Shown: positions 3,490-31,197, counted from the stretch's first letter. The stretch: 64,000 bases of DNA from Coriobacteriia bacterium (GCA_009783085.1 WRHU01000004.1:76380-140379); one strand, 5' to 3'. Numbers and translations are program-made. The notes: generated from the letters alone by a model not told the origin.

Positions 3490-3515
3490 CAAAAGCCCCG
3501 TTTCCGAGGCTTTTG
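3490..3515 (-). terminator. Intrinsic terminator after beta-helix paralogue 1
   Basis: Hairpin AAAAGCC-CCGTTTCCG-AGGCTTTT, with a T-rich tail on the minus strand. Confidence 0.75.
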
Positions 3516-3573: not shown

Positions 3574-5165
3574 TTATTTAACTACAATGGTCACTTTTTT
3601 CTTGGTAGTTCCCTTTACGTTCTTGGCGCTAATGGTAATTTTGTACTTACCTTTTTTGAGTCCCTTGGGAATAATAAGCTGGCCGCTTTGGTCAATTTTT
3701 ACCTTAGTTTTGCCCTTCTTTACCGACCACTTGCAATCAGCACCACCATTGGCGGTATAGAGCTTAATGGTTTTCTTATAGCCTTTTTTAAGCGTAATGG
3801 TTGCACTGCCTTTAATGGTAGGCTTTTTGGTAACTTTTGCCTTTGTTTTGATGCCGTCCTTATTGCTAACGTCGTAGTTGTTAAAGCCCTGCATAAAGGG
3901 ATAGGTCCACGTAGTGCACGCTATTTTTGCCTTGTTGTAATCCTGCATATATTTTGGGTTTAGCTTGCGGGCATCTTTTGCCTTATTCTTTGAGAAGGTA
4001 ACGTTTTTGCCGATGGTCAGACAATCATAGTTCCAGCGGTTAGCATGTAGCCCGCCGCCGTTGCCCTTGGCGGTATTGCCTGAAACAGTGCCGCCCGTCA
4101 AACTAACTGGCTTGTTATCGCAACTAATGCCGCCGCCGTTGCCCTTGGCGGTATTGCCTGAAACAGTGCCGCCCGTCATCTTAAAGCCGTCGCTGAAGCA
4201 GGTGGTTTCTACTCCGCCACCGTTTCCATTAGCGACATTACCTGAGATAGTTCCGCCACTCATAGTAAAACTACCAGCGTCATACACGCCGCCGCCACTT
4301 TCCGAGGAAACATTATTTGCTATGGTGCCACCAGACATAGCAAAGGTTCCAGAGCTGCTGACACCGCCGCCATAACCTCCAGATTTGTTGTTAGATATTG
4401 TGCCACCTTTCAAGTTGAACGTGCCTCTCGTGGCAACATTCACGCCCCCACCGCCATAGGTGTCGGTATTGTTCGAAATACTCCCACCCGACATAGTAAA
4501 AACACTGCCACCTGTGTTCCAAACGGTGCCGCCCGTGCTTGTGGTATTGTTGCCCATTATTGAGCCGCCCTGCATGGTGAAGGTGTTGCTGTTTTTTACG
4601 CTGGTACTTTTACAGTTGGCAATTTTACCGCTTTTGAGGGTAAAAATACCGCTGTTTGACACACAGGAACCAGTGGTGCTTGTAAAGGTAAGTGTTGGCC
4701 CGTTAAGGGTAAACTTACCACCAGTCTGAATGTACACAGTGTAGAGTTTCGGAGATGACAGAGTAAATGAGCCCGTCAGCGTAATATCCTTATTGCTGCC
4801 AACAAGGAGGTAGTTCTCTACCAAAGACTCTGTTCCAAACGTAATGTTTTCAGTCATCACAATGGTGCGCGGCGTAGAATTTGGTGCGCTATTCGCTGCA
4901 TTTTTTAGCTCAGTAACATTTTTGACATAAACTACATCGCCAGCCAAAGACTTAATTTCTTGCGTGCCTTCCTCGGCAAATGCGGCTGCCGGTGCTGCAG
5001 CAAAACTGCCACACGCCAGTACAAATGCTACCACCAAGGCAAGCGCACGCTTAGCTGGTGATACAGCAGGTCTTGATTGAGTTTTGGACGGAGAGTTTTC
5101 TTTCGGGCTTACTTTAGGGTCAGAGAGAGAGAGAGAGAGCTTTTCAGACCAAGGTTTAAGTTCAT
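3574..5165 (-). CDS. Secreted Gly-rich right-handed beta-helix (polymorphic-outer-membrane-like repeat) surface protein, paralogue 1; probably frame-OFF at the (CT)9 tract
   Basis: Signal peptide (ALALVVAFVLAC...AAAFA-EE), repeated GG(G/A)V / F.MSGG.IS.N units and a Lys-rich C-terminal beta domain. The SD-supported ATG at 5165 is out of frame with the body; an in-frame ATG at 5193 has only a weak SD. Confidence 0.7.
5122..5139 (-). repeat. (CT)9 dinucleotide tract in the 5' end of the surface-protein gene
   Basis: The plus strand reads (AG)9 at 5122-5139. Confidence 0.95.
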
Positions 5166-5370
5166 GAGTTAACCTTTCTAATTTTTGTGGCATATACGCC
5201 ACCACCGTATATCATTGCACATAATACACGCTTTTTCTGAGTTTTTCAAGAGCCCCCCGGCAAACGGCGGCTTGTAGGTGGCACAAGAGCACTGAAAAAA
5301 TGCTTCAAAAGTAACGTAGACGCTGGTTAGCGGCAAAAATAAGGCCCCATTTACGGTAAAATATAGTGCT

Positions 5371-27407: not shown

Positions 27408-28904
27408 CTAGCTAACCTTTATGGTAATGGTTTTTGTTTTTACTCCCGAGGAGTTCTTGGCCTGAATGGTAATCTTGTGATTTCCCTTTTTGAGGCCTTT
27501 TGGAATGGTCAGCTTACCCTTGCTGTTAATCGTAACTTTTTTGCTTCCCGTGTTTTTTGTAATAGAAAACTTAGGTGCTGGATAACCTTTGCCCACATAT
27601 ACCTTAGAGGTTTTTGCGTAACCCTTCCTTAGCTTAATGGTGCTTGCGCCCTTAATACTTGGCTTACCTTTTGCCGTAGTTTTTGCGCCAAGGTAAGGAC
27701 CAGCAATATCAAAGTTGTTGTAACCCTGCTTGAGGTTGTAGCTCCACTTTTTGGACTTAATATTTTTTTTGTAAATCTTATTATATTTTGCAAGGCGCTT
27801 GTAGGCACCCTTTGCGCGATTGTCAGAGAACTTGCCTTTCTTGGCTACCTTCAGCTTGGCATAGTCTTCTGTAGCTACACCGCCACCAAATTTCTTTGCC
27901 ACATTATCGGTAACAGCACCTTTTGTTATGTTCATGTTGCCAGATTTCACAACATATGCGCCGCCGCCATCTTGACTGGCAGTGTTTTCGATTATTTTAC
28001 CACCAGACATTTTGAAGGTCGAAAAAGTGACGAGACCAGCTCCGCACTTTGTAGCCTTATTTTTTGAGATAGTGCCGCCCGTCATAGTAAACGTGCCCTT
28101 GCTCACATACACGCCGCCGCCATGAACGCTTGACTTGTTCTCCGTTATCTTACCGCCAGACATTTTGAAGGTGCCGCCTGCAACTACTACACCACCGCCG
28201 CCGTAAGCAGACATGCACTTTGTTATTGTGCCACCCGTCATAGCAATGTTGCCAAAGCTAAAGACGCCAGTATCTTTGCAGCCAGAAATTGTACCGCTTT
28301 TCAAAGTGAGGGTTCCGCCAGATTCCACACCAACACCAGCACCTTTGCTGCTGGTGTTGATAACAGTGATGCCTGAAAGGGTGAGCTTTGCTCCAGTATC
28401 AACCCAAATAACGGTACCCAAATAATCGTTTCCAACGCTGACATCAGAGCCTTTGAGCTTAAACGCACCGGTCAACGTGATATCTTGACCCTTTGAAATA
28501 GGAAGATAATAAGCTCCCAAATCGATATCAGCAGTTAACTGAATGGTCGTTGGCGTGTTTTGCGGAGCGTTGATAACCGCCGTTGCAAGATCCGTGACCG
28601 TGCCAACAGTAGCCAGGGGTTTTACAACCGACGTGCCAGACAGGGCTTCGATTGCACCAGACGTGCCAAGCGACGTGAGAGGATTTTTCTTCGAAGCATC
28701 CGTCTTAGCTTCTGATGCTCGTATCTCTCCAACAAAAACAGCATCATCTCCTGATGCATCATCTGCAAATGCCGTTGCAGGAGCTACCGCAAAGCCCGTA
28801 CATGCGAGCGCGAGCGTCAAAAAGAATGCAATAAATTTTTTACGAAATGTTACTGCTGGAGTCTTGCTTGCTGCCTTGCTAGAGTTTTGTAAGTTTTTTG
28901 TCAT
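27408..28904 (-). CDS. Secreted Gly-rich beta-helix surface protein, paralogue 2
   Basis: SD GAAAGG, MTKN... signal peptide ending ATAFA-DD, GGGV/F.M.GG.I..N repeats and a Lys-rich C-terminal domain like those of paralogues 1 and 3. Confidence 0.8.
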   Translation of the reverse strand: MTKNLQNSSKAASKTPAVTFRKKFIAFFLTLALACTGFAVAPATAFADDASGDDAVFVGEIRASEAKTDASKKNPLTSLGTSGAIEALSGTSVVKPLATVGTVTDLATAVINAPQNTPTTIQLTADIDLGAYYLPISKGQDITLTGAFKLKGSDVSVGNDYLGTVIWVDTGAKLTLSGITVINTSSKGAGVGVESGGTLTLKSGTISGCKDTGVFSFGNIAMTGGTITKCMSAYGGGGVVVAGGTFKMSGGKITENKSSVHGGGVYVSKGTFTMTGGTISKNKATKCGAGLVTFSTFKMSGGKIIENTASQDGGGAYVVKSGNMNITKGAVTDNVAKKFGGGVATEDYAKLKVAKKGKFSDNRAKGAYKRLAKYNKIYKKNIKSKKWSYNLKQGYNNFDIAGPYLGAKTTAKGKPSIKGASTIKLRKGYAKTSKVYVGKGYPAPKFSITKNTGSKKVTINSKGKLTIPKGLKKGNHKITIQAKNSSGVKTKTITIKVS

Positions 28905-29102: not shown

Positions 29103-30869
29103 TTACTTGACAACAATCGTTACCGTTTTCTTGCCAGTTCCTTTTTTGTTCTTGGCAATAATGGTTACTTTGAATGTTCCTTTTTTGTGTCCTTTAGGAA
29201 TAGTGAGCCTGCCGCCTTTGTCAATTTTTACCTTAGTGCTACCCTTCTTTACTGAGATAGTAAAGTCACCGCCACCTTTTATGGGGAAATCTGCGTAGTC
29301 ATATCCGTATTTGGTATAGGCAGTTATCTTAGACTTACCGCCTACCTTTGGCTTGGTAGCCTTGACCTTTGTTTTGGTGCCACCAGGATTGCTGATGTCG
29401 TAATTGTTGTAGCCCTGTACAAACTTCGAGCTCCATGACGTGCACTTAATTTTAGCCACATAGTATCTGCCTTCGCGAGGGCTTGGCTTGCGGGCATCTT
29501 TTGCTTTATTGCCCGAAAACTTTACCGCCTTTGCAATGGTCAAATTCTTAAAGTAGTAGGAGTCCATGGCCAAACCGCCGCCGTTTCCTTTGGCAGTATT
29601 ATTTGAAATGATGCCACCATTAAGCTTGATTTTCTTGTCGGTGAAGCCAATGGCGAGACCGCCGCCGTCAGCACCGGTAGTTTTGTTGCCCGTAATAGTG
29701 CCACCGCTCATAGTAAATGTTGTAGAGGTACAGTAGATTCCACCACCATTTTTGCCGGCTGTATTGCCAGAAACAGTAGCCTTGTTAAAAGCAAACGTTG
29801 CACTTTGGCAATAAATGCCACCACCCCTACCGAAGGCTGTGCCGCTTCCTTTAGCGGTGTTATTTGAGATAGTACCACCTGTGATGCTAAAATTACCGTT
29901 AAATAAATCTATGCCGCCACCATCAAAGGCAGCAGTATTGCCAGATACCGTACCGCCTGACATCGTAAAAGTTGACCGTATGCTCAGTCCGCCGCCGTCG
30001 CCTGCAGAAGTGTTGTTTGAGATGGTACCGCCAGACAAAACAAGCGAACCACCACAGTAGGCACCAGCACCTTCTGAACCAGAGGTATTCCCTGTGATAG
30101 CACCACCAGACATACGAAAAGCACTATTGCCCGTTGTGCGAACACCAGCACCAGAACCGCTGCTCTTATTGCCCGAAATAGTGCCGCCTTGCAAGACAAA
30201 GGTGTTGGTGTTGTAGACGCCGCTATTTTTGCAGTTTATGACTTTTCCGCTTTTCATGGTAAAGATACCGTCATTCCAGATTCCATAGCCGGTTCCTGCA
30301 TTGGTTACCGTGACGCCATCGAGGACAAAGGTTCCGCCCGTATAAACATCAATAACCTCATATGCGCTGCCCGTTAATACAAAGTTTCCCTTGAGCGTAA
30401 TATTTTTGCCGTTGGTAATGGTAACTCGGTCTGAACCTACGAGGGAAATGTTCTGCGTTAATGTGATGACACGCGGTTGTGTTGCGTTGTTGACTGCATT
30501 GAGGAGTTCCGTAGCGTTTTTGACTGATACGGCATCCAGAGTCGTAATTGCCTTGGCAGCCACTGATTTTTCTTCAGAGCTAGCTGGGGCAACTTCTGCA
30601 GCCAAAGGCTCAATCGCCTCATCTTCCTCTACCGCATCCTCTGCGGCATCCTCTGCAGCAAAATCCTCGGCTTCGTCTGCTGCGTCCTCAGCAACAGCAG
30701 CTTCTGGAGCAACAAGCTCAAGAGGCTCTACGACCTCATCTGCAAAGGCACTTGCAGGAGCTGCTACACCAGTACACGCCAGTGCAATTGCCACAAAGAT
30801 AGCAAGTGCCCTCTTTTGCAAAGAGATGCTTGCTTTTGCAGCAGTTTTGTTTGATAACTTCTTGTACAT
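29103..30869 (-). CDS. Secreted Gly-rich beta-helix surface protein, paralogue 3
   Basis: SD GAAAGG, MYKK... signal peptide ending ASAFA-DE, an acidic Ala/Glu linker, beta-helix repeats and a Lys-rich C-terminus (YNNYDI motif shared with the paralogues). Confidence 0.8.
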   Translation of the reverse strand: MYKKLSNKTAAKASISLQKRALAIFVAIALACTGVAAPASAFADEVVEPLELVAPEAAVAEDAADEAEDFAAEDAAEDAVEEDEAIEPLAAEVAPASSEEKSVAAKAITTLDAVSVKNATELLNAVNNATQPRVITLTQNISLVGSDRVTITNGKNITLKGNFVLTGSAYEVIDVYTGGTFVLDGVTVTNAGTGYGIWNDGIFTMKSGKVINCKNSGVYNTNTFVLQGGTISGNKSSGSGAGVRTTGNSAFRMSGGAITGNTSGSEGAGAYCGGSLVLSGGTISNNTSAGDGGGLSIRSTFTMSGGTVSGNTAAFDGGGIDLFNGNFSITGGTISNNTAKGSGTAFGRGGGIYCQSATFAFNKATVSGNTAGKNGGGIYCTSTTFTMSGGTITGNKTTGADGGGLAIGFTDKKIKLNGGIISNNTAKGNGGGLAMDSYYFKNLTIAKAVKFSGNKAKDARKPSPREGRYYVAKIKCTSWSSKFVQGYNNYDISNPGGTKTKVKATKPKVGGKSKITAYTKYGYDYADFPIKGGGDFTISVKKGSTKVKIDKGGRLTIPKGHKKGTFKVTIIAKNKKGTGKKTVTIVVK

Positions 30870-31197
30870 GGTACTTCCTTTCGTTTTGGGCGCGCACAAA
30901 CACGAGCCACCTGTTTATGTTTTCTTGGATTTCAGACAGTTTTTCGAAAATGGGCTTCTACACATCTCTGACATGCTACTTGCAAACTTCCCACACACTT
31001 TTTGTTATTTCTCGACTATTATGTCACGTTTCTGTCCGAATTTCAAGACCCTACGTCAAATAAAACCCCCCGAAGTCGCGCGAGGTTGCATTTTTTTGAA
31101 TTTTTTTTGAGGTTATTGGGGTTTTGGGCTCTAGGTGGGGTTTTGCGGCAAAACAAGCAGAATGCCCCAACGTAACACCTCGTCAAAGGGCAAATAC

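Follow-up and report, generated by a model that had tools for sequence, protein, structure and literature searches.

A leader-proximal (CT)9 tract as a probable phase-variation switch of a surface-protein gene in a termite-gut Coriobacteriales bacterium

Why should a gene for a predicted secreted surface protein carry a pure dinucleotide repeat that sets its likely start codon out of frame with its body? The question is raised by a locus in a 64,000-nt stretch of DNA from a Coriobacteriia bacterium (GCA_009783085.1 WRHU01000004.1:76380-140379; hereafter the window, to whose numbering plain coordinates refer), which belongs to a metagenome-assembled genome (MAG) of a termite-gut Coriobacteriales organism (1.58 Mb, 19 contigs, 49.8% GC, 91% complete). 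The repeat, (CT)9, separates a Shine-Dalgarno (SD)-preceded ATG at 5165 from the signal peptide of a 500-aa surface protein and is probably a slipped-strand switch that turns translation of the gene ON and OFF (phase variation). This function had been proposed in the initial annotation of the window and is now supported by paralogous tracts in the same genome, a difference in tract length between strains, the same layout in another genus and a lack of mismatch repair (MMR) genes.

The minus strand is a perfect (CT)9 from 5139 to 5122, read as (AG)9 on the plus strand, and Tandem Repeats Finder returns the same interval (5122-5139) with period 2, 9.0 copies and 100% match; the sequence directly 3' of it on the minus strand is GACCCTAAAGTAAGC... 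The other elements of the leader also stand as first described: GAAAGG is found at 5178-5173, 7 nt ahead of ATG 5165, the frame opened by this ATG ends just past the tract, and the listed open reading frame (ORF) begins at GTG 5205 and runs for 543 aa. The long body frame, which is 539 aa from ATG 5193, is in another register than ATG 5165. When the tract is edited in silico, ATG 5165 is joined to the body at 8 or 11 units, as had been claimed, with products of 529 aa (n=8) and 531 aa (n=11) that start MNLNLGLKSSLSLS(LS)DPKVSP, and tracts of 6, 7, 9, 10 or 12 units give peptides of 13-20 aa (15-20 aa for 9, 10 and 12). The gene is thus ON from ATG 5165 if n mod 3 = 2 (n = 8, 11, ...), when the tract encodes (SL)n as part of the signal peptide's n-region, and in the assembly it is in the OFF register. 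The locus therefore has a pure non-triplet repeat near the 5' end of a reading frame, in which gain or loss of units toggles in silico between a full-length product and an early stop, as in known contingency loci. The elements of the gene, all on the minus strand, are as follows, in order of transcription.

5221..5249, minus strand: sigma-70-type promoter, TTGAAA-17 nt-TATTAT, 10/12 consensus matches
5187..5202, minus strand: hairpin GTGGC-GTATAT-GCCAC in the 5' untranslated region (5' UTR), 5 pairs kept in 5 paralogues
5191..5193, minus strand: alternative ATG, in the body frame only at n mod 3 = 0, as in the assembly, with a weak SD-like GGTGG upstream
5173..5178, minus strand: Shine-Dalgarno GAAAGG ahead of ATG 5165-5163, the family-typical ribosome-binding site
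5109..5165, minus strand: OFF-phase frame from ATG 5165, 18 codons MNLNLGLKSSLSLSLTLK then TAA at 5111-5109
5122..5139, minus strand: (CT)9, the proposed slipped-strand switch, 26 nt after ATG 5165
4975..5052, minus strand: signal-peptide core, KR, hydrophobic ALALVVAFVLACGSFAAAPAAA, AFA then EEG; the KR(L/A)LA...AFA pattern occurs in all paralogues
3574..5121, minus strand: gene body, 515 codons and stop; beta-helix, capping region WTxP..GYNNYD and basic C-terminal immunoglobulin-like (Ig-like) domain
3490..3515, minus strand: intrinsic terminator after the stop codon; pheS-pheT lies downstream with its own leader

Transcription would start near 5214, and the intrinsic terminator at 3515-3490 makes the gene monocistronic. 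The tract sits in a long n-region (~35-40 aa), ahead of the charged KR, and AFA before EEG is a likely signal peptidase I site by the -3/-1 rule.

Long dinucleotide tracts are rare in this genome. A whole-genome scan found tracts of 9, 12 and 14 units, all AG/CT, and no others above 6 units, whereas 30 order-1 Markov simulations of the genome gave on average 0.7 tracts of 6 units, 0.03 of 7 and none longer; in 200 shuffled versions of a locus, (CT)6 did not occur. The tracts of 12 and 14 units belong to cassettes paralogous to the leader of the window gene (locus C4), and two further copies carry shorter or degenerate repeats.

G000 C8:46345-46372: (CT)14 cassette, ON, 360-aa Ig-like protein, from the genome scan
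G000 C10:5824-5847: (CT)12 cassette, OFF, protein of >1917 aa, from the genome scan
G000 C1:176764-176773: (CT)5 cassette, ON, 952-aa leucine-rich repeat (LRR)/Ig protein, upstream region near-identical to that of C8
C2:140096: fifth copy with degenerate TCTCTCTTT, from the paralogue comparison

The three loci with long tracts share one layout, consisting of a -35/17/-10 promoter, a GTGGC..GCCAC hairpin, GAAAGG-N7-ATG, 26 or 29 nt and (CT)n, followed on the 3' side by G(A/C)(C/A)CCTAAA(G/C)TAAGC and a homologous signal peptide, KRLLAMLLALALVCS...AFA. The promoters of C8, C10 and C1 read TTGCAT or TTGAAA, 17 nt, TATAGT. All four family loci have the same single ON register from the SD-ATG, n mod 3 = 2, by which C8 (14) and C1 (5) are ON and the window gene (9) and C10 (12) are OFF. 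At n=12, C10 has no ATG, GTG or TTG in the body frame between the preceding stop and the signal peptide, and its body frame is open for >1917 codons, to the contig end; judged by its sequence, it resembles a phase-OFF allele, not a decaying gene. A search for C10 orthologues found no close relative, and P0134, P0004 and P0192 are without tracts. That all three tracts of at least 7 units sit 26-29 nt past an SD-ATG, before a homologous signal peptide, counts in favour of reading them as switches.

The hairpin GTGGY-loop-GCCAC, with 5 bp conserved, followed by AA(A)TTAAAAGAAAGG, is present in the 5' UTR of five paralogues (window, C8, C10, C1, C3:80366). Its occurrence in these five is accompanied by no covariation or compensatory changes, the leader fold is no more stable than shuffled sequences, and an Rfam search returned nothing relevant.

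Tract length was compared between strains in assembled contigs and unitigs, including those of the four metagenome runs that hold the locus; all metagenomes in which the locus was found are from termite guts. The second strain (JGI sample 3300042604; NCBI MAG 'Coriobacteriales bacterium' GCA_031283305.1) has the syntenic gene (L018), again followed by pheS-pheT, with 99.2% identity to the window over 4139 nt and 99.2-99.7% in the flanks. The gene body differs at 5/1548 nt, with 0 indels, the changes being 3 non-synonymous and 2 synonymous, too few for dN/dS between the two strains to be used. The L018 contig starts inside the tract, eleven CT units ahead of GACCCTAAAG, and carries an exact match to the family-specific flank pattern CTCTCTCTGMMCCTAAASTAAGC; scans of metagenome and genome contigs with this pattern gave no matches, an uninformative zero because near relatives were evidently outside the scanned sets. 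The comparison of orthologues that had been suggested as a check on the switch thus gives n >= 11 vs 9 with conserved flanks. Length polymorphism between close strains with conserved flanks, a further mark of contingency loci, is also seen in a C8-type cassette from the second-strain sample (L139), which is 96.4% identical to C8 over 446 nt and has n=12 vs 14. This cassette heads the gene of an LRR-containing 478-aa protein whose annotated start is an internal Met.

In a further run (X2), two contigs that near the window tract both end in it, with 3 and 6 more letters unlike the reference. The X2 strain has two 1-nt insertions, one at 5157 in the leader ORF and one at 5193, as well as a substitution at 5169 in the SD-ATG spacer. 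The insertion at 5157 shifts the frame of the leader, and the ON register of this strain would be n mod 3 = 0. Upstream of the tract the amino-acid sequence of the leader is thus not conserved, and strains differ in their ON register. At C10, a 97-nt unitig has a depth of 8.4 vs 14-16 in its flanks, an inconclusive hint of heterogeneity. Unitig breaks near C8 and C1 are explicable by k-mers shared between paralogues and were not counted as evidence of heterogeneity. Look-ups with PheS, VanX-like, Pth and MtaB for more alleles gave only the same-sample ENA assembly or contigs ending before the tract.

The organism also appears to have no known means of correcting slippage. Searches for MutS_V, MutL and NucS domains found none in the 91%-complete MAG, whereas such domains were found in control genomes. 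This agrees with a class-wide report in which all analysed Coriobacteriia are without NucS and MutS-MutL (Castaneda-Garcia et al., PMC5290159). The placement of the MAG in the Coriobacteriia is backed by these absent repair families and by named close relatives (GCA_031283305.1). Elsewhere, in Helicobacter and Campylobacter, uncorrected slippage makes such tracts fast switches.

Similar tracts recur in the family, and some relatives have (AG)n tracts within restriction-modification genes, as described below. A BLAST search with the cassette and a plain scan for (CT)9 or longer detected long CT/AG tracts in 8/34 family genomes and 7/19 genera. One genus has cassettes of its own.

L148, L156 and L188 (G015, genus g15 of the family): AGGAG-ATG-6 codons-(CT)17/18/12-signal peptide, near contig ends, signal peptide RKLLLTTKKLLLITLISAQVLSMTVSLGWA

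These cassettes have the layout of the window gene with unrelated flanking sequence, and in the assembly each of them is one unit off register. A strict GAAAGG..ATG..(CT)6 scan of 61 relatives matched the window's own genome alone, the pattern being too strict. A generic AAGG..ATG..(CT)8 scan of GTDB genomes had among the matches listed many unrelated taxa, including H. pylori (the positive control), Tannerella MAGs with termite-study-style isolate labels and Dysgonomonas genomes (L060, L081, L091, L029, L050, L068); to judge from these matches, leader-proximal CT tracts may be common in the termite-gut habitat.

Taken as a switch, the tract would act as follows. A constitutive sigma-70-type promoter would yield the mRNA, on which GAAAGG-N7-ATG 5165 would open the reading frame, and the ribosome would reach (CT)n 26 nt past the ATG. 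With n mod 3 = 2, the tract would encode (SL)n within the n-region, and a 500-aa surface protein of beta-helix type would be made and exported; cleavage of the signal peptide would take the variable (SL)n with it. At all other values of n, translation would stop just beyond the tract, at n=9 after an 18-aa peptide. Slippage during replication would gain or lose CT units, the resulting loops being left uncorrected because the organism is without MutS/MutL or NucS. The three tract genes (n=9, 12, 14) would flip independently, giving a population of mixed surfaces.

Several observations count against this scheme. The L139 cassette is a mosaic that is not strictly syntenic with C8, which leaves the C4 comparison alone as truly orthologous. 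The X1 contig passes through the C4 tract cleanly at n=9, and lengths are known from assembled contigs alone. The same-genus genome G001 (75% complete, 220 contigs) has no tract. At n=9 the body frame holds ATG 5193 and GTG 5205, both downstream of the predicted transcription start, so the n=9 allele may be translated from either of them, and no RNA run holding the window gene was found.

The two starts open at n=9 lead to the alternative that survives best, which is nevertheless unlikely. Here a hypermutable tract leaves the n=9 allele expressed, from ATG 5193 (or GTG 5205), as a full-length pre-protein with a 9-aa-longer, different leader, MPQKLERLTHELKPWSEK(LS)3D...; only n mod 3 = 1 would be truly OFF, and the tract would be a dimmer or leader swap rather than a strict ON/OFF switch. 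ATG 5193 is in the body frame at n=9 with no stop between, lies ~21 nt downstream of the predicted transcription start with GGTGG 5 nt upstream, and is the start used in the IMG annotation. Against this, the ATG is part of the loop and 3' arm of the conserved hairpin at 5187-5202 (as ATG 5193-5191), and its counterpart meets a stop after 4 codons in C10 and C1, and is in frame with the SD-ATG in C8; given the early stops, no start is conserved at the position of ATG 5193. Next to the GAAAGG of 11 paralogues, the SD of this ATG is poor, and ribosomes from 5193 would compete with the strong site at 5165 in another frame. Annotators seem to have found no convincing start, since NCBI chose a GTG inside the hydrophobic core (486 aa), IMG ATG 5193 (539 aa) and the ORF list GTG 5205.

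ATG 5165 is the likelier start because GAAAGG-N7-ATG starts 11 paralogues, a comparative argument that we consider strong. These 11 secreted-protein genes include tract-less ones whose leaders read straight through, and in the sister MAG n-regions of 30-45 residues ahead of the hydrophobic core are normal. Two tandem paralogues of the beta-helix gene (36-43% identity), on the minus strand of the window at 27414-28889 and 29106-30887, also have GAAAGG-N7-ATG and a like signal peptide, with no tract.

A second alternative, which we regard as quite improbable, is that the tracts are neutral hypermutable repeats in an MMR-less genome and that the out-of-frame genes are becoming pseudogenes, with no selected switching. 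The want of MMR genes and the fact that 2/3 tract genes are out of frame are in keeping with this. Long dinucleotide tracts, however, are not scattered over the genome but all lie at one codon-level position of one gene family, a position also used in another genus; the bodies of 515 to >1917 codons are intact, and no substitution breaks up the tracts, a purity that speaks for their maintenance.

An 8-unit tract misassembled as 9 had been named as an outcome that would undo the switch, and the NCBI MAG, the ENA assembly (k141 contig L140) and a tract-spanning Logan contig of the source run X1, all assembled contigs, give n=9. These assemblies probably derive from the same reads, so their agreement rules out an assembler quirk, though not an artefact of the library. 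That the actual number of units is 8 or 11, with nothing amiss in the gene, polymerase stutter being frequent on dinucleotide runs and all n=9 assemblies probably coming from one library, is scarcely credible, since three assemblers concur on n=9, the 18-nt tract is much shorter than reads and k-mers, C10 would need to be hit independently too, and different lengths are seen in other samples.

The protein that the proposed switch would control has a predicted beta-helix of ~25-aa GGxISxN...GGGV repeats. A Pfam search assigned it no family at E<=0.01, with weak Big_2 and Chlam_PMP matches only, and two repeat models fall just under their curated thresholds (PF02415, 16.8 vs a cut-off of 20.6 bits; TIGR01376, 14.9 vs 15). 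Its homologues in gut and termite metagenomes carry PF13229 or PF02415, under the annotations beta-helix, InlB B-repeat or 'beta strand repeat-containing' protein. An AlphaFold2 model of the mature part, built from 39 aligned sequences, has a mean predicted local distance difference test score (pLDDT) of 85.8 and shows regular right-handed three-strand coils at residues ~11-380, then a low-confidence linker and a C-terminal beta-sandwich. The best PDB matches found by Foldseek are all beta-helical lyases or adhesins (PL6 lyases, pectate lyases, L. reuteri SRRP, PfbA), at E >= 0.02 and none significant. The model thus predicts a right-handed parallel beta-helix fold of ~25-aa coils. The basic C-terminal Ig-like module (weak Big_2 / InlK_D3 matches) recurs in at least 12 paralogues and is plausibly a cell-surface attachment module; the protein would be exported and held at the surface.

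The tract of the window gene could also be one element of something larger, a lineage-wide (CT/AG)n 'phasome' in MMR-less termite-gut Coriobacteriales, in which a portable module of promoter, hairpin, SD-ATG, (CT)n and signal peptide has been recombined onto varied bodies. We put this forward tentatively, as possible but short of probable. A portable module is suggested because the bodies are beta-helix, LRR and Ig-like, and because a 96%-identical cassette heads the 360-aa Ig protein here and the 478-aa LRR protein in the sister strain. A phasome is suggested because (AG)n tracts may also gate restriction-modification genes in sister genera. In L147 (G018), (AG)22 splits a type III-like DNA methyltransferase gene; in L149 (G016), the two halves of an HsdS-like specificity gene are separated by (AG)13; and in L151 (G040), from a different family within the order, a type IIG-like helicase-methylase is interrupted by (AG)10. 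These are candidate phase-variable restriction-modification systems, two of which are split into two frames at the tract.

Other repeats were noted in the relatives and in the genome itself. An (AG)23 tract ends 9 nt ahead of a lipoprotein-gene ATG, at the Shine-Dalgarno position (L161, G028), and (AG)10 occurs in the 5' region upstream of another secreted-protein gene (L159, G004), so that in these relatives the repeat chemistry is shared but the layout differs. Dispersed intergenic repeats of 80-180 nt, 83-99% identical, lie upstream of the cassettes (L139 743-925 and 1170-1256, with copies on G000 C2, C3, C5 and C6); recombination between such repeats may carry the cassette from one gene to another. 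Poly-C tracts of 11 (C1:48332-48342) and 14 (C1:194844-194857) lie between TTGAC and TACAAT hexamers, at the promoter-spacer position classic for transcriptional phase variation, with a small secreted and a membrane protein downstream of one and a DUF2752-like membrane protein downstream of the other. A (G)10 at G000 C5:54841-54850 is inside a 508-aa MBOAT/DltB-like acyltransferase ORF, ~70 codons before its end, and this ORF is intact. Finally, (CCTC)6 at G000 C3:67547-67570, ~200 nt upstream of recA, adjoins a field of degenerate GACG(T/A)TGG-type repeats in which the preceding gene ends.

The closest known designs are those of H. pylori, where the CT unit of oipA/hopH, sabA, sabB, hopZ and babB lies in the signal-peptide-coding 5' end, as in the window gene. 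There, too, a frameshift leads to an early stop, one register of three is ON, several paralogous surface genes are switched independently and the host is without MutS1/MutL-type repair. For oipA, the CT-repeat switch mechanism is established (PMC10564699). The likeness is in mechanism only, as no Hop/Hor homology of the window protein was found (Pfam, E<=0.01). Unlike the Hop-family beta-barrels, it is a beta-helix and Ig-like secreted protein of a presumably monoderm host, which is an uncultured termite-gut commensal, not a human pathogen, and its tract precedes the charged KR instead of lying within the hydrophobic core.

Neisseria opa genes have CTCTT pentamer repeats in the signal-peptide region. 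They resemble the window gene in having a pyrimidine-rich leader repeat, membership of a surface multigene family, independent switching and repeat residues that are removed with the signal peptide, but differ in that the repeat is pentanucleotide rather than dinucleotide and the products are Gram-negative outer-membrane beta-barrels, with no sequence relationship. The Pmp proteins of Chlamydia (Chlam_PMP / POMP repeat), some of whose genes vary via poly-G tracts, share a GGxI/FxxN-like beta-helix passenger and a large paralogous surface family; the window protein, in contrast, has no autotransporter barrel and has a basic Ig-like C-terminus, and the repeat models score below cut-off. Phase-variable restriction-modification genes (phasevarions) are represented in relatives by the (AG)10-22 tracts, with like simple sequence repeat (SSR) chemistry across the lineage, yet those tracts are inside enzyme genes rather than a secretion leader, and none was found in the window's genome. 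The mechanism is thus already known; the proteins, cell envelope, phylum and ecology differ from the closest known systems.

To our knowledge, almost all work on SSR contingency loci has dealt with a small set of pathogens (Neisseria, Haemophilus, Helicobacter, Campylobacter and mycoplasmas), and a literature search found no report linking Coriobacteriales to SSR phase variation. At this locus the H. pylori design, in CT unit and leader-peptide position, appears in an uncultured actinobacterial termite-gut symbiont of a class that is naturally without known mismatch repair, and the three loci in one small genome are a simple test case for dinucleotide slippage in an MMR-free background. If they do switch, surface genes in such MAGs that look frameshifted or have odd starts should be taken for phase-OFF alleles rather than pseudogenes or errors, and contig breaks at tracts would mark sites of variation; life in a mutualistic insect gut would then include surface-protein bet-hedging, whether against phages, protists or the host. 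If the lineage-wide phasome also proves true, a non-pathogenic insect symbiont would have combinatorial variation, both surface and epigenetic, of a kind known until now chiefly from host-adapted pathogens.

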